From Methanobacteriota archaeon (lineage in GTDB: Archaea > Thermoplasmatota > E2 > DHVEG-1): a stretch of 64,000 nucleotides of DNA. The stretch covers positions 384,001-448,000 of the forward strand of contig CAVYNH010000007.1 in the NCBI GenBank assembly GCA_963769885.1, read 5' to 3'. Under the pieces are notes generated by a model, which was given only the letters and a program-made list of their open reading frames with translations, was not told where the DNA came from and made no database searches. The position numbers and the translations under genes are program-made. Shown here one piece after another: positions 39,775-53,019 of the stretch; within the stretch, counting starts at the first letter, position 1; each line of letters starts with the position of its first letter.

Positions 39775-41160
<1,386 letters not shown>

Positions 41161-41298: not shown

Positions 41299-42621
41299 AT
41301 GGCAACAAAAACTGTGACTGTCCCAAAGGCGCCCAAACCCGAAGGGTTCAACCCTTTCAAAATGGCCCAGCAGCAATTCGACCGCATCGCAGATAAACTC
41401 GGCTTAGACCAACCAACACGGGATCTCCTCCGCGAGCCTCTCCGTGAATATCATTTCTCGATCCCAATCCGAATGGACGACGGTACCATGAAAGTCTTCC
41501 ATGGCTTCCGCGTCCAACACAACGACGCCCGCGGCCCCTGCAAGGGCGGCATCCGCTTCCACCCCCAAGAGACCATCGACACCGTCAAAGCCCTGGCCAT
41601 GTGGATGACCTGGAAATGCTCCGTCGCGGACATACCGCTGGGCGGCGGCAAGGGCGGCGTCATCTGCGACCCGCACAACCTCTCCGAAAAAGAGCAGGAA
41701 CGCATCTGCCGCGGTTGGGTCCGTCAGATTGCTCGCGACATTGGGCCTTACCAAGATGTACCAGCCCCTGACGTCATGACCAGCGGCCAGCACATGATCT
41801 GGATCATGGACGAGTTCCAGACCCTCTCCCACGGGGAGTTCCAACCTGGCGTCATCACCGGCAAGCCCGTCGGGCTCGGCGGCTCCCGAGGCCGGACCGA
41901 GGCGACCGGGTACGGTTTAATCTACATCCTTCGTGAAGTCCTCAAAGAGCTGAAGATGGACGTCACTAAGACCACCGCCTCCGTGCAGGGCTTCGGTAAC
42001 GTCGCCCGCTACGCCGCGGAGCTGTACTCGCAGTACGGCGGTACGGTCTTCTCCGTTTCCTGCTGGGACCAAAACGACGCCACCAGCTACGGCTTCTACA
42101 AGAAAAACGGCATCAACCTCGAGGAGCTCTTGAAAATCACGGACCGCTTTGGCACCATCGACAAGGATAAGGCGCAGAAACTCGGCTATCAGATCACCCC
42201 CGGCGACGACTGGCTCACCCATGACGTCGACATCCTCATCCCCGCGGCACTTGAAAACTCCATCACCGCGGAGAACGTCGGCAAGATCAGCCCCAAAGTC
42301 AAAATCGTCATCTGCGGCGCGAACGGCCCCGTCACCCCCGAAGCAGAGGACGCCCTCGACAAACGCGGCGTCACCGTCATCCCCGACTTCCTCGCCAACG
42401 CCGGCGGCGTCGTCTGCAGCTACTTCGAACAAGTCCAAAACAACCAAAACTACTACTGGACCAAGGAAGAAGTCCTCGGCAAACTCGACAACAAGATGAC
42501 CGACGCCTTCTACCACGTCTGGGACCTCTCCCAGCGCAAAAAAGTCCGCATCAGCGACGCAGCCTACATGATCGCCATAAACCGTGTCGCCGAAGCCTGC
42601 AAGATGCGCGGCTGGGTCTAA
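41299..42621 (+). CDS. Glu/Leu/Phe/Val dehydrogenase (second glutamate dehydrogenase, different subfamily)
   Basis: RVQHNDARGPCKGGIRFHP, MTWKC, GGGKGG, DVPAPD, QGFGNV, PDFLANAGGV. Confidence 0.93.
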   Translation: MATKTVTVPKAPKPEGFNPFKMAQQQFDRIADKLGLDQPTRDLLREPLREYHFSIPIRMDDGTMKVFHGFRVQHNDARGPCKGGIRFHPQETIDTVKALAMWMTWKCSVADIPLGGGKGGVICDPHNLSEKEQERICRGWVRQIARDIGPYQDVPAPDVMTSGQHMIWIMDEFQTLSHGEFQPGVITGKPVGLGGSRGRTEATGYGLIYILREVLKELKMDVTKTTASVQGFGNVARYAAELYSQYGGTVFSVSCWDQNDATSYGFYKKNGINLEELLKITDRFGTIDKDKAQKLGYQITPGDDWLTHDVDILIPAALENSITAENVGKISPKVKIVICGANGPVTPEAEDALDKRGVTVIPDFLANAGGVVCSYFEQVQNNQNYYWTKEEVLGKLDNKMTDAFYHVWDLSQRKKVRISDAAYMIAINRVAEACKMRGWV

Positions 42622-42634
42622 AACAACCGCGACT

Positions 42635-45600
42635 ATGCTGTCCCGTGACCGAGAACAACAAATCCGTACCACTATCCACGACATCACCGGGGTCACCCCC
42701 CCGGAACCCCCACAAGAACCAGGCTCACGGGAACCGGATCACCGCTCCTACACGGTGACCCGCATCCTCCTTTTTTCATCCTCCTACGACTACTTCCTCC
42801 TCACCGAAGAAAACAGACTCGACAGCCTCCTCGCCGAAACACCCCCCTACCGCTACTACCACGACCAACCCCCCAAGATCGCCCACGTTGAAACCACCAC
42901 CGACCTCATTGAACACCTCAAAAAACGCCGCTGCGACCTCCTCATCCTCTTCAACCCAGCCAAAGACCTCGACGCCCTCACCCTCACCCAAACCATCCAC
43001 ACCATCTCCAACGAAACCAAGATCATGGTCCTCGCCAACAACACCGCTGACCTCGCCGCCCTCCAACACCGCGACCACGCCCACACCATCGATGGCCTCT
43101 TCACCTGGAACGGCGATGGCAAAATCATCCTCACCATGATCGCCTACCTCGAGGACAAACACAACGCCACCACTCTCACCCCGACCGAGGACTACGACGC
43201 CCTCCTCCTCGTCGAAGACTCCATCCAAGCCTACTCCGAATACCTCACCGAAGCCTACGACGAAATCCGCAGACACCACCACGCCATCACCCCCGACGAC
43301 GCCACGAACGACGAAAACCTCGACACCTGGCGCAAACGACCCCTCGTCCTCCACGCCACCACCCTCGCCGACGCCCAGACCCTCATCACCCGGCACCAAG
43401 CTCACCTCATCGGCGTCATCACCGACAACCACCTCCCCGGCTCCCCCCCACACCACGACGACGGCATCCTCCTCGCCACCCAACTCCGGACCACCGCCCC
43501 CGGCATCCCCATCCTCCTGCAGTCCTCAGACCCCATCAAAACCAAGATCCCACCCAACATCACAACCATCCAAAAACACGACCCACACCTCACCACCACC
43601 CTCCGCCACTTCCTCCAAGACTGCCTCGGCCCCACCAACCTGCCTACTACCAACGACCACAATCCCATCCGCACCATGCGCGAATTCGAAGACGCCGTCG
43701 TCACCCTCCCCCCCGCCGCCCTGCGAAGTATCTCCAAGAATCACCAACTCTCCCGCTGGCTCCGCGCCCGCGGCGACCGCACCCTCGCCGACCGCATCAC
43801 CACCATCGAAAACGAGGACCTCGACGACGACGCCTTCAAACAACGCCTCGTCGACACCATCGAAGAACACCGCTACGCCAGCAACCAAATCCAAATCACC
43901 AAATTCCTGCGAGAAAACCAAGGCCCCGCCAGACAGATCAGCCGTATCGGAGACGGCGCCCTCGGCGGCAAAGCACGCGGCCTCGCCTTCCTCTCCAAAC
44001 TCCTCACCACCTACCTCACCGACGAGATGACCCCGGGCATCCACATCACCCTGCCCCGCAGCATCGTCCTCACCACAGACATCTTCGACGCCTTCATCAC
44101 CCAAAACCACCTCCTCACCCCCGAGCTCTTCACCCTCCCCGACGAACGCATCACCGCCCGCTTCATGGACGCCAGCCTCCCTCCTACCATCCTCGGCGAC
44201 CTCAGAGCTTTCATCCGCGGCAGCCGCAAACCCCTCATCATCCGCAGCAGCGGCATGCTCGAAGACAGCCTCATGCAGCCCTTCGCCGGCATCTACGCCT
44301 CCATCCTCCTCCCCAACGAATCCTGGGAAACCGACTTCCGCTTCCAAGACGTCTGCAACGCCGTTAAATACGTCTACAGCTCAACCTACAGCCAACGCGC
44401 CCGCACCTACATCCGCAACACCCCCAAAAACATCCGCGACGAAAAAATGGCAGTCCTCATCCAAGAAGTCGTCGGCGAACGCCACGGCCCCTACTTCTAC
44501 CCCGCCCTCTCCGGCGTCGCCAAATCCTACAACTACTACCCCACAGGCGGCTGCACCCACGAAGACGGCATCGTCTACCTCGCCGTCGGCCTCGGCAAAG
44601 CCATCGTCGACGGCGGCAGCAGCTTCTGCTTCTGCCCCCAACACCCCCGCGTCCCCCTCTTCGGCACCCCCAAAGACTTCATCAAATACAGCCAGACCCA
44701 CTTCTACGCCCTCACCCTCCAATCCATCTACCGCATCGTCGAAAAAAACGAAGACACCACCCTCAAAAGCCTCGACATCACCATCGCCCGCGACGAAGGC
44801 CTCCTCAACCAGTTCGCCTCCACCTACCTCCCCCGCGACGACACCCTCTACCCCGGCCTCTCCCCCGACGGCATCATGGTCCTCGACTTCGGCCCCATCC
44901 TCTCCTACGACGCTCTCCCCCTCGCCAACGCCCTCCGACTCCTCCTGCGCATCAGCGAACTCGCCCTCGGCTACCCCGTCGAAATCGAATTCGCCCTCAA
45001 CCTCCCCACCACCTCAGACGCCCCTGCGGAGCTCGTCATCCTCCAAGTCCGCAACATGCGGCCCAAAGGAAAACAAACAGAAGTCAACCTCCACGACTAT
45101 GATCAAAACCTCGACCTCTGCTTCAGCGCCAACGCCCTCGGCAACGGCATCATCGACGGCCTCACCGACATCGTCTATATCACCCCCGAAGGTTTCGACC
45201 TCGCCAACTCCCAGCGCGCCGTCGGCCAGCTCCGCACCATTAACGCCAAACTCATGGATCAGGCACGGCCCTACATTCTCATCGGCCCAGGCCGCTGGGG
45301 CTCCGCAGACCCTTGGCTCGGCATCCCTGTCCAATGGAGCGACATCGCTGGCGCCCGAGTTATCCTCGAGACCCCCGTCAAAGCCAGGATCATCGAGCCA
45401 TCCCAAGGCTCCCACTTCTTCCACGACATGATGGCAGGCCAGGTCGGCTACCTCATGACCAAAGACGGCCCCGCCAACATCCGCTACAACTGGCTCGACT
45501 CCCTCCCAGTCCTAGAGACCACCCAGGACGTCAGGTACGTCCGGTCACCGGAGCCGCTCATGGTCCTCATCGACGGCAAGACTGGGAAGGCAGCCCTGCG

Positions 45601-45670
45601 CAAACAGACAACCCTTAAAAACCCGCAACACCATGCAGACCCACAGGAGCCAACTGAGGGGACCATCTAG
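42635..45670 (+). CDS. PEP-synthase/PPDK N-terminal (ATP-grasp) protein with N-terminal receiver-like domains
   Basis: GGKARGLAF, IRSSGMLED..FAGIY, KMAVLIQEVVG, VEIEFA, GPGRWGS, SQGSHFF; REC-like LLLVED...VITD. Confidence 0.85.
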   Translation: MLSRDREQQIRTTIHDITGVTPPEPPQEPGSREPDHRSYTVTRILLFSSSYDYFLLTEENRLDSLLAETPPYRYYHDQPPKIAHVETTTDLIEHLKKRRCDLLILFNPAKDLDALTLTQTIHTISNETKIMVLANNTADLAALQHRDHAHTIDGLFTWNGDGKIILTMIAYLEDKHNATTLTPTEDYDALLLVEDSIQAYSEYLTEAYDEIRRHHHAITPDDATNDENLDTWRKRPLVLHATTLADAQTLITRHQAHLIGVITDNHLPGSPPHHDDGILLATQLRTTAPGIPILLQSSDPIKTKIPPNITTIQKHDPHLTTTLRHFLQDCLGPTNLPTTNDHNPIRTMREFEDAVVTLPPAALRSISKNHQLSRWLRARGDRTLADRITTIENEDLDDDAFKQRLVDTIEEHRYASNQIQITKFLRENQGPARQISRIGDGALGGKARGLAFLSKLLTTYLTDEMTPGIHITLPRSIVLTTDIFDAFITQNHLLTPELFTLPDERITARFMDASLPPTILGDLRAFIRGSRKPLIIRSSGMLEDSLMQPFAGIYASILLPNESWETDFRFQDVCNAVKYVYSSTYSQRARTYIRNTPKNIRDEKMAVLIQEVVGERHGPYFYPALSGVAKSYNYYPTGGCTHEDGIVYLAVGLGKAIVDGGSSFCFCPQHPRVPLFGTPKDFIKYSQTHFYALTLQSIYRIVEKNEDTTLKSLDITIARDEGLLNQFASTYLPRDDTLYPGLSPDGIMVLDFGPILSYDALPLANALRLLLRISELALGYPVEIEFALNLPTTSDAPAELVILQVRNMRPKGKQTEVNLHDYDQNLDLCFSANALGNGIIDGLTDIVYITPEGFDLANSQRAVGQLRTINAKLMDQARPYILIGPGRWGSADPWLGIPVQWSDIAGARVILETPVKARIIEPSQGSHFFHDMMAGQVGYLMTKDGPANIRYNWLDSLPVLETTQDVRYVRSPEPLMVLIDGKTGKAALRKQTTLKNPQHHADPQEPTEGTI

Positions 45671-45676
45671 GAGGCC

Positions 45677-48600
45677 ATGGCTATCGCAGAAAAAACCGAG
45701 TTCCAAAAAGCGACCCAACACGAACCCAGCATGTCCTCGTACCACACCATCAACGAGCTGAAAGAACGCGTCAAAGAACTCAACTGCCTTTACGGCCTCA
45801 CCAAGATCGTCAAGAACACTAAATACACCGTGGACGAGGCCATCCAGAACATCATCGCCCTCATCCCGCCCGCCTGGCAGTACCCAGATATCACTTGCGC
45901 CCGCATCTCCTTCGAAGGCGGCAAAGAATACGTCACCAAGAACTTCCGAGAATCCAAATGGAGCCAAATCAGCAACATCATCGCCGACGAGAAAAAAATC
46001 GGCGTCCTCGAAGTCTACTACACCGAGGAACGCCCCATGCAACATGAAGGCCCCTTCCTCAAAGAAGAACGCCGCCTTATCGACGCCATCGCCACCCTCA
46101 TCGGCCAATTCTTCGAAGAACGCCGCGTCAAAGAAGAACTCAGGAAAAAGAAGATCGCCCCCTACGTCAAACCCGTCTCCACCAAAAAAGCGGGCGAGAC
46201 CCCCACCCAGAAGAAACAAGACTGGGAAGTCATCATCGACCTCCTCATCAAGACCGACCCCCGGACCCTCCTGCGGATCACCCGCAAGATGACCTACTAC
46301 CTCTACCGCCACAACAACGAGAAGATCACGGACCTGCAGAACCAGATCACCCCTATCGACAGCACATCCACGGCCCGCGGCATCAACATGCCCAACCCCC
46401 GCACCGACCTGCAAAGCCTCGTCACCTTCCAAAAACACGTCTTTGACATCGCCAAGGAAAGCATCCCCTCCCAGGTCATCTCCGAACTCTTCCAGGACTG
46501 GCTGCGCTCAGACAAGGCTCGACCGCTCCTCCTCACCTCCCAGAAGACCGGTGTCCCCCTCAGCGAGATCCGCGAAGAACTCACCCGCTTCATGGAAAAA
46601 ACCGACATTGAAACCTCCCTCTCCGAAGAAGACACCATCGGCATCAAGACCGCGATGATCCGACGGTTCGTCACCGACCGACTCGAATACGTCAACGTCG
46701 CCAAGTCCTACTTCGAACTCGAAGACTTCGTCCAACTCCTCTCCTGCATCATCGGCCCCGCCCAAGGCGCCGGCAAACTCGGCGGCAAAACCGGGGGCGT
46801 CATCCTCGCAGAAAAAATCCTGCGCACCGAAATGAAAAACGACGCCCTCCTCAAAGACATCGACTTCCCCCGCAGCTGGTACATCACTTCAGACACCGTC
46901 GCTGCCTTCGTCCATCACAACGACCTCGACGACGTCTTCCACATCAAATACCTCGACCCCGGCGAGATCCGCCAAGAACAACCCTTCCTCGAACAAATCT
47001 TCAAAAACGCCTTCTTCCCTTACGAAATCGTCGAAGGACTCCGCGGCATCATCACCGCGGTCAAAGACAAGCCCATCATCGTCCGATCCTCAAGCCTCCT
47101 CGAAGACAGCTACGGCGCCGCCTTCTCCGGGAAATACAAAAGCCTCTTCGTCCCCAACCTCGGCTCCGAAGAAGAACGCCTCAAAGCCCTCATGGACGCC
47201 ATCGCCGAAGTCTACGCCTCTACCTTCGGCCCTGACCCCATCGAATACCGCCGCGAACGCGGCCTCCTCGACTTCAACGAAGAAATGGGCATCCTCGTCC
47301 AAGAGGTCGTCGGCACCCGCATCGGACCCTACTACATGCCCTCTTACGCCGGCGTCGCCTTCAGCCGCAACGAATTCCGCTGGTCGCCCCGCATCCGCCG
47401 CGAAGACGGCATGATCCGCCTCGTCCCAGGCCTCGGCACCCGCGCCGTCGATCGCGTCGGCAATGACTACCCCATCCTCATCTCGCCGTTCCGCCCAGAG
47501 CTCCAAGTCAACACCCTCATCGAAGAACGCATCAAATACTCACCACGCTACATGGACGTCATCAACATGCAGACGGGGCTCATCGAAACCGTCGAAATCG
47601 AAGACCTCCTCAGGAACTACGGCGACCAAATCCCCCTCTTCGACAACATCGTCTCCGTCCACGAACAAGGACGTCTCATCGCCCCCAACGTCATATGCGA
47701 CCTCGCCACAGCAGACCTCGTCGTCACCTTCCAAAATCTTTTCGATAAGAGCGACTTCCTCCCGAAAATGAAACGGATCCTCTCCATCCTTGAAGAGAAG
47801 ATTGGCTCACCGGTCGACATCGAATTCGCCTGCGACGGCCACAGGTTCTACTTCCTCCAATGCCGACCTCAAAGTCAATCCCGCGGCATGGAACGCGTCC
47901 CCGTCCCCAAGGACATCCCCCGAGAACAGAAGCTCTTCACCGCCCGCCGCTTCATCACCACCGGCCAGATTGAAAACATCGAGTACATCGTGTACGTCAA
48001 CCCTGAAGCGTACGGTGCCCTTGAAAGCCGAGAAAAAATGCTGCGAATCGCCCGTATCGTCGGCGACTTAAACAACAAGCTGCCGCGGCGGAAATTCATT
48101 CTCATGGGCCCAGGCCGCTGGGGCAGCCGTGGAGACATTAAGCTTGGTGTCCCCGTCCGCTATGCGGACATTAACAACACCTCGCTCCTGGTTGAGATCG
48201 CAAAGGAAAAAGGCGATTATACTCCCGAGCTTTCGTTCGGCACCCACTTCTTCCAGGACCTCGTCGAAGCCAACATCCGCTACCTCCCGTTATACCCCGA
48301 TCAGCCGGATATCATCTTCAACGAAGACATCCTCATGGCTGCCGAGAATCACATGGCTGAGATTATCAATAGCGGCGCTCAGAATGAGACGACGATTCGT
48401 CTGATCAAGGTCTCTGATATTGTCCCTGGTGGCTCGCTGCGCGTCATTATGGACGGTGATGCGGGTGAAGCCCTCGGGTATTTCAAACCCCCTGACCATT
48501 GGGACTGGCGGGTCCAGAAAGTGAAGCAGATTGCAAAATCCCTTGACCCGGAGCTGTACGGCATCCATGCAATGTACGTCATTGGCAGTACCAAGGACGG

Positions 48601-48868
48601 CGGCGCGGGGCCGGCAAGCGACATTGATTTGCTTGTGCATTTCCGAGGCACTGAGGAGCAGAAGGAAAAACTCCTGGAGTGGTTCGCTTCCTGGGGCAAG
48701 AAGTTTGACGATGAAAACAAGGAGCGTACCGGAATCAGGACCGGGGGGCTGCTTGATGTCCATATCATCACCGACGAGGATATTAAGAACAAGACGTCCT
48801 GGGCAACGCATCTGACGTCCCCATACTTGACTGCGTTGAAAGTGCCGTTGGAGAAAGAGCAACTCTAG
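45677..48868 (+). CDS. PEP-synthase/PPDK N-terminal (ATP-grasp) protein with GAF-like N-terminus and C-terminal nucleotidyltransferase domain
   Basis: GGAGG SD; LKERVKELNCLY..YPDITCARI; LGGKTGG, VRSSSLLED..FSGKY, VDIEFA..LQCRP, GPGRWGS, SFGTHFF; YVIGS..SDIDLLV. Confidence 0.87.
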   Translation: MAIAEKTEFQKATQHEPSMSSYHTINELKERVKELNCLYGLTKIVKNTKYTVDEAIQNIIALIPPAWQYPDITCARISFEGGKEYVTKNFRESKWSQISNIIADEKKIGVLEVYYTEERPMQHEGPFLKEERRLIDAIATLIGQFFEERRVKEELRKKKIAPYVKPVSTKKAGETPTQKKQDWEVIIDLLIKTDPRTLLRITRKMTYYLYRHNNEKITDLQNQITPIDSTSTARGINMPNPRTDLQSLVTFQKHVFDIAKESIPSQVISELFQDWLRSDKARPLLLTSQKTGVPLSEIREELTRFMEKTDIETSLSEEDTIGIKTAMIRRFVTDRLEYVNVAKSYFELEDFVQLLSCIIGPAQGAGKLGGKTGGVILAEKILRTEMKNDALLKDIDFPRSWYITSDTVAAFVHHNDLDDVFHIKYLDPGEIRQEQPFLEQIFKNAFFPYEIVEGLRGIITAVKDKPIIVRSSSLLEDSYGAAFSGKYKSLFVPNLGSEEERLKALMDAIAEVYASTFGPDPIEYRRERGLLDFNEEMGILVQEVVGTRIGPYYMPSYAGVAFSRNEFRWSPRIRREDGMIRLVPGLGTRAVDRVGNDYPILISPFRPELQVNTLIEERIKYSPRYMDVINMQTGLIETVEIEDLLRNYGDQIPLFDNIVSVHEQGRLIAPNVICDLATADLVVTFQNLFDKSDFLPKMKRILSILEEKIGSPVDIEFACDGHRFYFLQCRPQSQSRGMERVPVPKDIPREQKLFTARRFITTGQIENIEYIVYVNPEAYGALESREKMLRIARIVGDLNNKLPRRKFILMGPGRWGSRGDIKLGVPVRYADINNTSLLVEIAKEKGDYTPELSFGTHFFQDLVEANIRYLPLYPDQPDIIFNEDILMAAENHMAEIINSGAQNETTIRLIKVSDIVPGGSLRVIMDGDAGEALGYFKPPDHWDWRVQKVKQIAKSLDPELYGIHAMYVIGSTKDGGAGPASDIDLLVHFRGTEEQKEKLLEWFASWGKKFDDENKERTGIRTGGLLDVHIITDEDIKNKTSWATHLTSPYLTALKVPLEKEQL

Positions 48869-49698
48869 CCGATCAGCTGACGAGACGCCTGAGTGAGGCA
48901 CGCTGGGTCGAAGGTGATGAGAGACAGCTTCGGTTTGTCGGTTGATCCGTTGAAGCAGACGGTGTTCCCTATCCTGATTCTCCAGTGTTTGGTGAGTCGA
49001 GTCGCCTCATGCACATGGCCATGCATCGTGAGGAGCGGCTGATGGCGTTCGATGAACCGCCTGACTGCGATGCTGCCGACGTGGACATCCAGGGGCGCGA
49101 AATCAACTTTCTTTCCATCTAAGGCGGCCCGGTCAAGCGCCGTCTGGTAGGGCGGTGAATGGAAGAGAACTATGGTTTTTTTCATGGGAAGGTTTTCCGC
49201 GAGTTTTTCGAGATCCTCTGTGATGTACCCATGGAGGATGTGGTCCACAGAAAAGGGGACGGTATGTGTGCCTTCGATGGGGGGGATGGTTCCGACGTCG
49301 TCGTGGGAGGATACGTCGTAGCGTTCCCAGTCTTTCAGGAGGAAGGGAGTCGGTGGCACATAGGCGTACCCGGCGACTGTGTAGGGGGGGAGTTGCGTGG
49401 ACCGTTCATGGAGGTAGGTGAGGATGCCGTCGTGGTCTGCTGCTTGAAAGGCGGCTTCATGAATTCGGGGGTTGTCGTTTCCAAGGATGAGGAAGAATCG
49501 GGTGCGTTTTGCGTGGGCGCGGATGGGTGTGAGCAGGTAGGTGGTGATGAAGTCGTGAATCGGGAGTTGGCTGTGGTGGGTGGGAAGGAGGTCGCCTCCG
49601 ATGAAGACGGCGTCGGGGTGGTCGGTCTCAATGGCGTGGAAGAGGGCCGCGTATCGGGTGATGCTGCCGTGAAGATCTGAGGTGAAGAAGCAGTGCAC
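48865..49698 (-). CDS. Calcineurin-like metallophosphoesterase (Icc-related)
   Basis: SDLHG, GGDL, LGNDN, FHSPP, HGHVHE; GTG start with GAGG SD; stop overlaps the convergent gene. Confidence 0.88.
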   Translation of the reverse strand: MHCFFTSDLHGSITRYAALFHAIETDHPDAVFIGGDLLPTHHSQLPIHDFITTYLLTPIRAHAKRTRFFLILGNDNPRIHEAAFQAADHDGILTYLHERSTQLPPYTVAGYAYVPPTPFLLKDWERYDVSSHDDVGTIPPIEGTHTVPFSVDHILHGYITEDLEKLAENLPMKKTIVLFHSPPYQTALDRAALDGKKVDFAPLDVHVGSIAVRRFIERHQPLLTMHGHVHEATRLTKHWRIRIGNTVCFNGSTDKPKLSLITFDPACLTQASRQLIG

Positions 49699-50031
49699 AG
49701 CGGAAACCTCTGGGGATAGTGGTATCAACCCTGGGCTGTTAATAAAGATTTGGCAGAGGTGAGGCTGCGTTTTTTTGTGTGTACTGGTTCTTGATAGGGT
49801 GTGGGATGGATTTGCATATTTTTTTATTGCGAGATGGGGGTTAGTTCTACTAGTTGAGGCTCGTTTTTGCTTTTGTGGTTGGGGAATGAGATTTATAAAG
49901 CACGAGGCGTTATCACGCTTGTGGGGGCTTAGCGCGTGGAAACCCGGATACAGCGTGCCGAACACGTACCGAGGAGGATAGTGAGGTTCGTTGCCGGGAT
50001 GGACAGAGTCGCCTTTGCTTCCTAGGAAGGG

Positions 50032-50598
50032 ATTGTTCTGCTCTACTTCCTTCATGGCTACAACTCTTCCCCGAGCGGGGAGAAAGCGCTTCTTTTTCAA
50101 AAAACCTTGCAGGCTATCCCGCTTGCCTACCGGAATGGTCCGCCGGAGGATCTTAATGTGGGTGATGCGCTTCGGCGTGTGGCGGATGCCATTCGTGACG
50201 ATAAGAAGGTCGGCTTGATTGGGTTGTCGCTTGGTGGGTACCTCGCGGCGACGACGGCGCTGGATAACGTGCGGGTGACGCACGTCGCGTTGCTTAACCC
50301 GTCGATCATCCCCCCGGGGACAGATTTGTCTGGGGAGACGACGATGCCGCAGCGTATCTTGCGTGCGATGATTAACCCGAACCTGTTTTCAAGGGTTCTG
50401 CCTGCGCGGCTCATCATCTTGCGGGGGACGCAGGATACGGTGGTGCCTGATGCGTGGGTGCAGCCGTTTGCGCGGGCGCAGCATGCGAAGATTTTTTGTT
50501 TCAATGATGATCATCGGTTCACGCATTCCATGCATAAGTTCCCGGAGATCCTTGCGCATTTTTTTGCGGAAACGCCTCGGGTGACTGACCAGCAGTAA
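50032..50598 (+). CDS. YqiA/UPF0227-like alpha/beta hydrolase (non-ATG start)
   Basis: In-frame LLYFLHGYNSSP upstream of the track start, GLSLGG nucleophile, LLNP, DTVV, DDHRF. Confidence 0.8.
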   Translation: MVLLYFLHGYNSSPSGEKALLFQKTLQAIPLAYRNGPPEDLNVGDALRRVADAIRDDKKVGLIGLSLGGYLAATTALDNVRVTHVALLNPSIIPPGTDLSGETTMPQRILRAMINPNLFSRVLPARLIILRGTQDTVVPDAWVQPFARAQHAKIFCFNDDHRFTHSMHKFPEILAHFFAETPRVTDQQ

Positions 50599-50806
50599 TC
50601 AGCGGCGGGTGTTGGAGTCGCGAGAGTTTTTTTAAGATTACCACACCGAATCTTCGTATTGATTCTTCTCTACTCGTATTTTATGGTTGAGAGCAACGAA
50701 TACGTTTCCTTAAAGAAAAATAGTTTCCTTAGAGATGATTCGCCCAAAAGCTTTAAAGAGGGCAAAAATTACCCTTGTTCAGCATCCTCACGGGGCAGGA
50801 ATGGTC

Positions 50807-51637
50807 ATGTTTGAGATTCTTGAGAAGAAGATCCTCTCGCCGAATGAGAAGTTGATGAAGATCCGGGCGCCGCTCATCGCCCGGAAGGCGCAGGCCGGCC
50901 AGTTCGTCATTCTCCGCATCAACGAGCAGGGAGAACGGATCCCGCTGACCATCGCAGACTACGATAGAGACGACGGCACCATCACCATCATCTTCCTCGA
51001 AGTCGGCAAATCCACGAAACAGCTAGGAAGGCTTGAAGTGGGAGACTCGCTCTTGAACCTCGCCGGGCCCCTCGGCATGCCCTCCGACATCAAAAACTAC
51101 GGCACCGTCGTCCTCATCGGCGGCGGCGTCGGCATCGCCCCCCTCTATCCCATCGTCCGCGCGATGAAAGCCGCCGGCAACCACGTCATCTCCATCCTCG
51201 GCGCACGATCAAAGGACCTCATCATCCTCGAAGAAGAGATCTCCGAATATAGCGACGAGTTCTACATCACCACCGACGATGGATCCAAAGGGTCAAAAGG
51301 CTTCGTCAGCGACCTCCTCGACAAAATCATCCAACAGAAGGAAAAGAAGATCGATCTGGTCATGGCCATCGGCCCCGTCATCATGATGAAGGTCGTCTCC
51401 GACCTCACCAAGAAATACAACATCCGGACCCTGGTCAGTCTGAACCCGATCATGGTAGACGGCACTGGGATGTGCGGCGGCTGCCGCGTCTCGGTCGGCG
51501 GCAAGACGAAGTTCGCCTGTGTCGACGGCCCCGAATTCGACGGCCACCTCGTCGACTACCAGAACCTCATGCTTAGAAACCAACGATTCATCGGTCATGA
51601 GAAAGACGCCTGCAAGCTCCTGGAGGAGACGAAATGA
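50807..51637 (+). CDS. nfnA: NfnA/SudB FAD-[2Fe-2S] subunit of electron-bifurcating transhydrogenase
   Basis: GERIPLTIAD, GGGVGIAP, TDDGS, MVDGTGMCGGCRV..CVDGPEF. Confidence 0.9.
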   Translation: MFEILEKKILSPNEKLMKIRAPLIARKAQAGQFVILRINEQGERIPLTIADYDRDDGTITIIFLEVGKSTKQLGRLEVGDSLLNLAGPLGMPSDIKNYGTVVLIGGGVGIAPLYPIVRAMKAAGNHVISILGARSKDLIILEEEISEYSDEFYITTDDGSKGSKGFVSDLLDKIIQQKEKKIDLVMAIGPVIMMKVVSDLTKKYNIRTLVSLNPIMVDGTGMCGGCRVSVGGKTKFACVDGPEFDGHLVDYQNLMLRNQRFIGHEKDACKLLEETK

Positions 51638-53019
51638 GCGTGCAGAAGACGAAGCATCCGATGCCGCAGCAGCGGCCGGAGGAACGGATCCATAACTTCC
51701 GGGAAGTCCCACTCGGATACGAACGAGATGTCGCAATCGCAGAGGCAAAACGCTGCCTGCAATGCAAGAACCGCCCGTGCATGAAAGGCTGCCCCGTCGA
51801 AATCGACATCCCCGGGTTCCTCCACTGCATCACGCTCGGTAAGTTCGAGAAGGCCGCGGAAATCATCCGGGCCAAGAACAACCTGCCGGCGGTCTCTGGC
51901 CGGGTTTGCCCGTATGAGGATCAATGCGAAGGAGAATGCACATTGAAGAAGGCAGGGGAGCCGGTCGGCATCGGGCGGCTCGAGAGGTTCATTGCGGATT
52001 ATGAGCGGACGAAGGGGGCCGTGGTGCCGCCGCGGCCGCCATCGAACGGGAGACGGGTTGCGGTCGTCGGCTCAGGGCCGGCAGGATTGACGTGCGCGGG
52101 AGATCTCGCAAAGATGGGCTACGAAGTTGTCGTCTTTGAGGCACTGCATGCCCCAGGCGGGGTCCTTATGTACGGCATCCCGGAGTTCCGGCTGCCGAAG
52201 GCTATCGTCCATTCCGAGGTCGATTATATCAAGAAGTTGGGCGTCCAGATCGACTATGATATGGTCGTCGGCAAGTCCATCACCGTCCCGGAACTACTGC
52301 AGGAGTTCGATGCGGTGTTCCTGGGAACCGGGGCTGGATTGCCGAACTGGTTGAACATCCCTGGTGAGAATCTGGATGGGGTATATTCAGCGAACGAGTT
52401 TCTGACGCGGGTGAATATGATGAGGGCATACGAGTTCCCTCGGTCGGATACCCCGGTGAAGATCGGCCGGATCGTGGCGACATTTGGCGCAGGCAACGTC
52501 GCAATGGACTGCGCGCGGACCGCGCTACGGCTAGGAGCAGAAAAGTCCTATATTCTGTACCGGCGGACAGAGGCGGAGATGCCGGCGCGGGTGGAGGAGA
52601 TTGAGCACGCGAAAGAAGAAGGCGTAGTCTTTAGGCTCTTGACCAACCCTGTCCGATTCATTGGGACGGAGAAAGGACTCCTCAAATCAGTCGAGTTTTT
52701 GAAAATGAAGCTCGGGGAGCCTGATGAGTCTGGTCGGCGTCGTCCCGTGCCGATTCCCGGCTCGGAGGAGATTTTGGATATCGACACCGCGGTGGTGGCG
52801 ATCGGGCAGAGTCCGAACCCGCTCGTCCCGCGATCCCTACCTGGTCTGAAGCTAGGGAAGCACGGGAATATCATCACGGATGAGGATGGCCGGACGTCAA
52901 TCCCTGGCGTGTTCGCGGGTGGTGACATCGCGACCGGGGCGGCGACCGTGATCCTGGCGATGGGGGCGGGAAAGAAGGCCGCCCGAGCAATCGACCAGTA
53001 CATCAAGGAGAAAAAATAG
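51634..53019 (+). CDS. nfnB: NfnB/SudA GltD-like NADPH-binding Fe-S flavoprotein
   Basis: EAKRCLQC..C..GCPV, GRVCP..QCE, GSGPAGL, YGIPEFRLPK, GAGNVAMD, FAGGD; ATGA coupling to nfnA. Confidence 0.9.
   Translation: MSVQKTKHPMPQQRPEERIHNFREVPLGYERDVAIAEAKRCLQCKNRPCMKGCPVEIDIPGFLHCITLGKFEKAAEIIRAKNNLPAVSGRVCPYEDQCEGECTLKKAGEPVGIGRLERFIADYERTKGAVVPPRPPSNGRRVAVVGSGPAGLTCAGDLAKMGYEVVVFEALHAPGGVLMYGIPEFRLPKAIVHSEVDYIKKLGVQIDYDMVVGKSITVPELLQEFDAVFLGTGAGLPNWLNIPGENLDGVYSANEFLTRVNMMRAYEFPRSDTPVKIGRIVATFGAGNVAMDCARTALRLGAEKSYILYRRTEAEMPARVEEIEHAKEEGVVFRLLTNPVRFIGTEKGLLKSVEFLKMKLGEPDESGRRRPVPIPGSEEILDIDTAVVAIGQSPNPLVPRSLPGLKLGKHGNIITDEDGRTSIPGVFAGGDIATGAATVILAMGAGKKAARAIDQYIKEKK

Follow-up and report, generated by a model that had tools for sequence, protein, structure and literature searches.

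A GAF-sensor, dikinase-like protein fused to a minimal nucleotidyltransferase belongs to a conserved glutamate dehydrogenase cassette

What does a protein act on that joins a predicted sensor, an ATP-grasp domain and a minimal nucleotidyltransferase in a single chain? The question is raised by the P0001 gene (45677..48868, +) in a 64,000-nt stretch of contig CAVYNH010000007.1 from a Methanobacteriota archaeon (hereafter the window), an open reading frame (ORF) that encodes 1063 aa in the order GAF, helical domain, PPDK_N ATP-grasp, C-domain and nucleotidyltransferase (NT) domain. A first-pass annotation of the letters had recognized a GAF-like sensor, an ATP-grasp, a His-bearing domain and a minimal Pol-beta-type nucleotidyltransferase (NTase), a reading that Pfam, fold matches and motifs bear out, and had pointed to the neighbouring glutamine synthetase (GS) as a possible target. 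We found that the linkage to GS is absent from 80 of 80 bacterial loci, and that the conserved partners are instead a glutamate dehydrogenase (GDH2) and a metallophosphoesterase (Mpe). The conserved cassette thus consists of a GDH2-type dehydrogenase, a dikinase-like paralogue, the GAF...NT protein and a convergent Mpe. Judging from sequence and gene order, we regard it as about an even chance that P0001 is the sensor-bearing catalytic subunit of this four-gene cassette, serving the post-translational control of a dedicated GDH.

The window carries, in order, the genes of GS (-), GDH1 (+), GDH2 (+), P0002 (+), P0001 (+) and Mpe (-), followed by a GltD-like pair. GDH2 (41299..42621, +), assigned as an ELFV-family glutamate dehydrogenase by Pfam, NCBIfam, synteny and phyletic match, ends 13 nt before the ATG of P0002, the upstream paralogue (42635..45670, +; probable ATG at 42635 in an ORF open from 42584), which has a REC-like N-terminus, a PPDK_N domain and a C-domain but no NT domain. 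The P0002 stop codon lies 6 nt before the P0001 ATG, with a GGAGG just upstream of P0001, and the 3′-end of the convergent Mpe gene (48865..49725, -, coding for the conserved aa 186-472; Pfam Metallophos and alignment A9) overlaps the P0001 gene by 4 nt. Against the NCBIfam model GdhA_Arch, GDH2 scored 484.6 bits and remained under every equivalog cut-off, while GDH1 (39823-41160, +) is a canonical NADP-GDH (775.8 bits versus a cut-off of 536). The tandem GDH genes therefore differ in kind, and it is the divergent archaeal-type GDH2, not GDH1, that travels with the cassette.

In all eight loci from archaea of related genera, GDH2 and/or the paralogue lie upstream and Mpe is convergent, as far as the contigs reach. 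A scan of species-representative genomes with a narrower NT alignment (A4) retrieved at least 519 loci/species-level genomes, with carrier phyla including Acidobacteriota, Krumholzibacteriota, Aminicenantes, Planctomycetota, Gemmatimonadota, Zixibacteria, Calditrichota, Chloroflexota, Bacillota and Bacteroidota/Ignavibacteria. One locus, L093, bears the label Melioribacter roseus. Bacterial neighbours were counted in the best 80 of these loci. An ELFV dehydrogenase, always closer to GDH2 than to GDH1, lies just upstream on the same strand in 44 of 53 loci, the paralogue directly upstream in 40 of 53, and Mpe immediately downstream in 46 of 67 (43 of them convergent). Where there is room on both sides (42 loci), the paralogue was found in 37, GDH in 37, Mpe in 31 and all three in 29. 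Distant homologues keep the same company: an ELFV dehydrogenase, a PPDK_N protein of ~580 aa, a GAF...NT protein of ~1060 aa and, in convergent orientation, a Metallophos gene, with one distant locus holding several PPDK_N paralogues and two dehydrogenases. An alternative layout of the Aminicenantes type (L035, L037, L038, L041, L045, L054 and L055) places GDH directly before the GAF...NT gene, and the phosphoesterase then runs in the same direction as a REC-type paralogue encoded on the opposite strand.

This distribution bears directly on the idea that P0001 is a GlnE-like adenylyl- or uridylyltransferase that modifies Tyr382 of the neighbouring GS. The GS gene, 3.6 kb upstream and on the other strand, does retain the loop Tyr noted in the first-pass annotation (Tyr382 in ERNIYAL; codon 38436-38438, -, one base off the earlier figure), GlnE and GlnD are established members of the same NTase superfamily, and a GS gene also sits by the cassette in the archaeal locus L016. 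Against this stand the 0 of 80 bacterial loci with GS near the cassette, and the only 2 of 8 archaeal ones, of which L016 repeats the window arrangement while the GS of L017 is 37% identical and sits elsewhere, further downstream. Moreover, in its phyletic pattern the NT protein goes with GDH2 and Mpe, the Pfam and NCBIfam scans of P0001 found none of the domains specific to GlnE (its repeats) or GlnD (NT + HD + ACT) at E ≤ 0.1, and non-adenylylated GSI-alpha enzymes retain that Tyr too. For want of conserved linkage, GS was ruled out as the NT target, and we hold such a role to be very improbable.

Phyletic comparison points the same way. Among 41 related archaeal genomes, the NT protein was found in 11 and Mpe orthologues in exactly the same 11, and 10 of these 11 genomes also have GDH2 orthologues of at least 67% identity, which the remaining 30 lack; since these relatives are not independent, the co-occurrence is a pattern rather than a statistic. 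The one genome of the 11 without a GDH2 match has a completeness of 60%, and the contig in question begins within the paralogue. P0002-type paralogues alone occur in 12 other genomes of the 41. A complementary view came from orthologues that lack the NT domain: three of the GAF type (P0142, P0149 and P0145) each lie directly behind an ELFV dehydrogenase, and no Metallophos or paralogue gene was found within 6 kb of them. Because these NT-less orthologues keep GDH, the GDH link belongs to the core of GAF, ATP-grasp and C-domain, while Mpe, and probably the paralogue as well, tracks the NT domain. Two further relatives of ~770 aa without GAF and NT (P0146 and P0156) sit on short contigs without GDH and are uninformative, and the contigs of P0136 and P0150 were too short for a judgement of neighbours.

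The first-pass annotation had also proposed that P0001 works with its upstream paralogue, possibly as a heterodimer, and the backing for this is genomic, consisting of the conserved adjacency of the two genes and of natural fusions of the paralogue to the GAF...NT protein (P0124, 1654 aa; P0125, 1639 aa), which suggest joint action; P0124 also sits behind a GDH gene, and a third fusion, P0141, is without NT. The catalytic part of P0002, with its GPGRWGS and SQGSHFF motifs (the latter holding His944), is 38-44% identical to short bacterial paralogues in the equivalent position, so P0002 is their orthologue with an added REC-like N-terminus.

We next consider the protein itself. A parse of homologues (the best 150 of 1739 matches, found with aa 745-1063 as query among 1.84 billion representative proteins) divides P0001 into five units, aa 1-165, 166-367, 368-744, 745-935 and 936-1063. 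The protein belongs both to the PPDK_N family and to the PF01909 minimal NTases. The fusion of the two is the rule among orthologues: PF01326 and PF01909 occur together in 120 of the 120 top database matches (64-91% identity), and the full GAF...NT architecture in 70 of the 72 bacterial loci having enough upstream sequence. NT-less forms were also found among the parsed homologues, as GAF-type proteins of ~915 aa and as ~770-aa and ~590-aa proteins. Database entries label the homologues solely 'PEP synthase', 'pyruvate, water dikinase' or 'nucleotidyltransferase domain protein', and a phmmer search of the PDB with P0001 gave no match. A canonical role as phosphoenolpyruvate (PEP) synthase was rejected, as Pfam found no PEP/pyruvate-binding TIM barrel (PF02896) in P0001, where the NT domain follows the C-domain instead, and the genome has a canonical 806-aa PEP synthase elsewhere; the scores of P0001 against the NCBIfam PEP synthase equivalogs were ~47 versus cut-offs of 598-883.

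The additional C-terminal domain noticed at first reading is real (aa ~938-1063, nt 48488-48868): P0002 stops after its own SQGSHFF domain, so that the last ~125 aa of P0001 are an extra domain that the upstream paralogue is without. Pfam, fold matches and motifs identify it as an MNT-type (minimal nucleotidyltransferase) NT domain of the Pol-beta superfamily (aa 938-1060, 48488..48856, +). PF01909 (NTP_transf_2) matched aa 948-1000 with 30.6 bits, which is over its cut-off (GA 21, E 4.5e-7), while PF18765 with 22.6 bits stayed under its GA of 26.9. The hG-S...D-x-D pattern and the Asp in LDVH had been taken for the Pol-beta NTase signature, and motifs, Pfam and fold agree on it: the stretch YVIGSTKDGGAGPASDIDLLVH (aa 967-988, nt 48575-48640) contains G970-S971 and D982-I-D984, and the third Asp, D1027, lies in LDVH (aa 1026-1029). 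The best fold matches were 8xeh_E (Z 8.1, root-mean-square deviation (rmsd) 3.1, 102 aligned residues) and 1wot (Z 8.0, rmsd 3.0, 97 aligned), followed by 2rff (Z 7.5), HI0073 (1no5, Z 7.3) and then ANT enzymes; Foldseek gave a probability of 1.00 against MNT and ANT entries, and profile matches in the PDB were 2rff, 1wot and MntA (5yep).

The conservation of the catalytic residues was then counted. In 30 diverse homologues (down to about 26% identity over NT), S981 and D982 are invariant, G970, S971, D984 and D1027 are each kept in at least 90%, and the motifs are kept in 27-28 of the 30. Among the bacterial species-representative loci, GS..SDxD is present in 80/80 and the third Asp in 79/80. 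The DxD motif, whose loss among homologues had been named beforehand as the point on which the NTase reading could fall, is therefore kept, and the reading stands. Such conservation of the triad in 79-80 of 80 species, and in homologues of 29-50% identity, points to purifying selection on G-S, DxD and the third Asp and hence to selection on catalysis.

These counts weigh on two other views of the NT domain. It might be non-enzymatic, a nucleotide-binding, regulatory or dimerization module, with His phosphotransfer as the sole chemistry of the protein; MNT proteins do form dimers, minimal NTases usually need a partner domain, and the NT-less GDH-linked orthologues imply that the core can work without NT. 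The retention of the triad just described, and the strict co-occurrence of Mpe with the NT-bearing form in the archaeal relatives, speak against this view and make it improbable. Alternatively, NT could be unrelated to GDH, either an MNT-type module for antitoxin action or defence or a nucleotidyltransferase of RNA 3′-ends. Its closest structural and sequence relatives are indeed MNT antitoxins, and with the minimal nucleotidyltransferases, MntA included (8xeh, 7ae9, 5yep, 1wot, 2rff and 1no5), it shares the fold and the hGS-x(9-10)-SDxD motif plus third Asp, and PADLOC reported matches to PDC-S09. MntA, the antitoxin of type VII HEPN-MNT systems, AMPylates protein Tyr. Unlike MntA, the NT of P0001 is fused behind a 940-aa enzyme, has no HEPN partner among the window neighbours and lies in a GDH cassette rather than in a toxin-antitoxin pair; it scored only 17.8 against the MntA equivalog NF047752 (cut-off 60), and across phyla NT is always fused to a dikinase-like body inside the GDH cassette. 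The PADLOC matches being only weak and MNT-like, the defence reading was rejected, and we consider it exceedingly improbable.

Upstream of NT lies the dikinase-like part. The PPDK_N ATP-grasp domain (aa 368-743, 46778..47905, +; PF01326, E 7.7e-54) has intact ATP-grasp residues (K371, R470-S-S, E476-D477, Q542, E716, Q728 and R730), and these nucleotide/Mg columns are invariant in an alignment with the canonical PEP synthase of the same genome; the same holds for P0002. The C-domain (aa 745-935, 47909..48481, +) is a candidate divergent phospho-His swivel domain on the basis of near-invariant motifs and a structural model (aa 745-1063, pLDDT 91.6, pTM 0.81). The motifs are GPGRWGS (aa 811-817) and S-F-G-T-H857-F-F, that is, the SFGTHFF seen in the first-pass annotation at about 48235-48255 and located by us at aa 853-859, nt 48233-48253; His857 (codon 48245..48247, +), the candidate phospho-acceptor, is invariant in alignment A7, and 75 of 76 bacterial loci carry a G-[TS]-H motif. 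In the model, His857 is preceded by Gly-Thr and lies at the N-terminal end of a helix, a placement known for the catalytic His of PEP-utilizer domains. The fold comparison yielded four swivel phospho-His domains at Z 4.9-5.6, namely those of rifampin phosphotransferase (RPH, 5hv1 757-867; Z 5.6, rmsd 3.7, 105 aligned), the C-terminal domain of pyruvate kinase (2e28, Z 5.3), Enzyme I (2wqd, Z 5.2) and PPDK (1vbg 388-515, Z 4.9), while Pfam found no PF00391 (PEP-utilizers mobile domain, GGxT[SC]H) in P0001. Of the 'His domain' as first proposed, the swivel-like fold thus finds weak matches, and the profile-profile comparison is negative, for which reason the assignment is plausible only. In a few NT-bearing homologues (P0180, P0264, P0161 and locus L049), His is replaced by Ser, Gly or Thr and GPGRWGS is partly lost, with the NT triad kept; a phospho-His in cis would thus not be needed for NT function in those lineages.

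The N-terminal aa 23-160 (45743..46156, +), with KELNCLY ... EGPFL motifs, form a GAF-fold sensor according to the AlphaFold model (aa 1-370, pLDDT 82), VIA and Foldseek. The 'GAF-like' label of the first reading is borne out at the level of the fold, though Pfam is silent, giving no GAF match in P0001. The GAF fold is a six-stranded antiparallel sheet with flanking helices; aa 23-160 matched more than 40 GAF structures with Z 11-13 in VIA (more than 40 GAF entries at Z ≥ 8.3), the best being 9bgv (Z 13.2), 3cit (Z 12.9) and 4g3k (Z 12.2), with the NifA GAF (8jrc) at Z 11.7, and the top Foldseek matches of this domain were all GAF. The same GAF subtype, at 48% identity, was observed inside a PAS-PAS-HisKA-HATPase kinase of a relative (L131:2256-4616, genome G008), and in an acidobacterial locus it occurs near a GAF histidine kinase and a sigma-54 response regulator between two GDH genes (L028:2244-4091). 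Occurring in and near histidine kinases, this GAF subtype is a portable sensor module. The following all-helical domain (aa 182-357, 46220..46747, +, from DSSP of the model) is common to the ~770-aa relatives without GAF and NT; it has no match in Pfam or the PDB, and a profile search of the N-terminal half of P0001 (alignment A2) against the PDB returned nothing useful.

With which known systems, then, does P0001 compare? It comes nearest to VadK (Rv1127c) from Mycobacterium tuberculosis, a PPDK in truncated form with the regulatory role of a histidine (di)kinase; VadK phosphorylates itself on His422 and interacts with two enzymes of the methylcitrate cycle, PrpC and PrpD (PMC13400623). Like VadK, P0001 has PPDK_N and a His-bearing domain, no PEP/pyruvate TIM barrel and a tie to enzymes of central metabolism; VadK, however, has the canonical PPDK phospho-His domain, while the C-domain of P0001 is not recognizable as PF00391, and VadK is without the GAF, NT, paralogue partner, phosphoesterase and GDH link that the P0001 system has. 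A PPDK_N ATP-grasp followed by a C-terminal His swivel domain, the latter a candidate in P0001, is also the layout of RPH (5hv1), PigC/RedH and phenylphosphate synthase. RPH-type enzymes phosphorylate small molecules, carry a substrate-binding domain and have neither a sensor domain nor an NTase, and the NCBIfam RPH score of P0001 (32) is far under the cut-off of 999.

The RPH-type enzymes introduce the main rival of a regulatory role, a small-molecule pathway modelled on rifampin phosphotransferase, phenylphosphate synthase and PigC, in which the dikinase-like pair would phosphorylate a GDH-connected metabolite that GDH2 supplies or consumes, NT would nucleotidylylate it or a related compound, and Mpe would process the product. 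Most characterized PPDK_N enzymes without a TIM barrel do act on small molecules, P0001 has weak NCBIfam matches to RPH, PigC and RedH, the structural neighbours of NT include small-molecule NTases of the ANT type, a dehydrogenase in the same operon is a typical feature of pathways, and the helical middle domain could bind a substrate. Yet the short bacterial paralogue consists of ATP-grasp and C-domain only, sensors are fused to both proteins (GAF on P0001, of a subtype also found in histidine kinases, and REC-like on P0002), NT is of the minimal MNT type without the ANT-like C-terminal helical domain for substrate binding, and VadK is an example of a truncated dikinase with a regulatory function. 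Given the signalling modules and the lack of a substrate-binding domain in the short paralogue, we favour the pathway less than control of GDH and judge it rather unlikely.

How could the cassette, then, control its GDH? By analogy with the systems above, a metabolite bound to GAF would gate P0001, whose ATP-grasp would pyrophosphorylate or phosphorylate His857, as in PEP synthase, rifampin phosphotransferase and VadK, with His944 of the paralogue probably joining in the His phosphorylation. NT may then move a nucleoside monophosphate (NMP) from the triphosphate onto a protein hydroxyl within the cassette, be it of GDH2, of the paralogue or of P0001 itself, and Mpe may strip the mark, comparable with the NT-plus-HD logic of GlnD and the protein AMPylation of MntA; the net output would be post-translational control of the dedicated GDH2, not of GS. 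Such a GAF-gated His relay between the paralogues, combined with reversible nucleotidylylation by NT as writer and Mpe as eraser, we put forward tentatively, as a possible scheme with the chances somewhat against it. The same caution applies to its target, which might be the dedicated GDH or the relay partner, in which case the cassette, spread over Thermoplasmatota and many bacterial phyla, could conceivably be the GDH counterpart of the GlnE/GlnD-GS cascade.

Several points weigh against control of GDH by this relay. Everything beyond domain identity and gene linkage is what we infer from sequence, and linkage to a GDH gene fits a metabolic role equally well as a regulatory one. His857 as phospho-acceptor is a candidate only, as the C-domain model finds weak fold matches (Z about 5), the profile of this domain shows no similarity to the swivel domains of PEP synthases in hhalign (probability 0.1%), and the His is lost in the few NT-bearing homologues named above. 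No Mpe lies within 10 kb in about a quarter of the NT-bearing bacterial loci, the related archaeal genomes are non-independent samples, and the comparison with NT-less orthologues comprises three loci only.

GlnD and GlnE, NTases of the Pol-beta superfamily, add NMP marks to proteins of nitrogen metabolism and take them off again, and GlnD combines an NT writer, a metal-dependent phosphohydrolase (HD) as eraser and sensor domains. The proposed NT, Mpe and GAF logic would be analogous to that of GlnD; in P0001, unlike in GlnD/GlnE, the candidate eraser is a calcineurin-like protein of its own, the enzyme linked to the system is GDH rather than GS or PII, and a dikinase-like module is attached. 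A likeness to PtsP (Enzyme I-Ntr) lies in the N-terminal GAF fused to an enzyme of the phosphotransfer type, as predicted for P0001, and in the context of nitrogen metabolism (PtsP GAF 3trc versus aa 23-160: Z 11.2, rmsd 2.5, 116 aligned); PtsP, however, is driven by PEP and has a canonical His domain and a TIM barrel, while P0001 is ATP-grasp-based, has no barrel and has an NTase.

A literature search turned up no publication on either the fusion or the cassette, and P0001 is a variant of known enzyme kinds in an uncharacterized, widespread GDH-linked system. New here are the exact co-occurrence of NT protein, Mpe and GDH2 in the archaeal relatives, its contrast with the NT-less orthologues, the count of catalytic-triad conservation and the explicit rejection of GS as partner. 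GDH stands at the junction of carbon and nitrogen metabolism, and the adenylylation cascade of GS is a textbook system, whereas dedicated covalent control of a prokaryotic GDH is, to our knowledge, essentially undescribed. Should the mechanism put forward above be borne out, it would add a new regulatory use of dikinase His-relay chemistry, so far known from VadK, and a new cellular role of minimal nucleotidyltransferases outside toxin-antitoxin systems, and it would correct a systematic misannotation; the residues open to test would be H857, H944, D982/D984 and D1027.

Some further observations concern the neighbours. The Mpe ORF (48865-50283, -; 472 aa) is probably over-extended, with the true start likely near 49725: its orthologues have 282-303 aa and match only aa ~186-472, and the first ~185 residues are basic and of low complexity. 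Its motifs are DxH, GD, GND(N), H and GHxH, where GND(D/N) replaces the canonical GNH(D/E) and is invariant from archaea to bacteria (49-53% identity); neither phmmer nor a profile search with A9 found a close solved relative in the PDB. Two Mpe orthologues contain one in-frame stop each, TGA in G028:C48:3605-4447 and TAG in G014:C14:25023-25886, which could be a sequencing error, a pseudogene or recoding. The GltD-like pair (50735-53019, +), composed of a DHODB-type FAD/NAD/Fe-S subunit and a Fer4_20/Pyr_redox_2 subunit, recurs by the cassette in several archaeal and some bacterial loci (for example L015, L016, L018, L019, L021, L027 and L097). Finally, a relative with a single-contig genome (G003) has a second, truncated copy elsewhere in that genome (C1:862050-865507), in which the paralogue precedes an open frame of 622 aa with 69% identity to P0001 over aa 16-596 of the latter.

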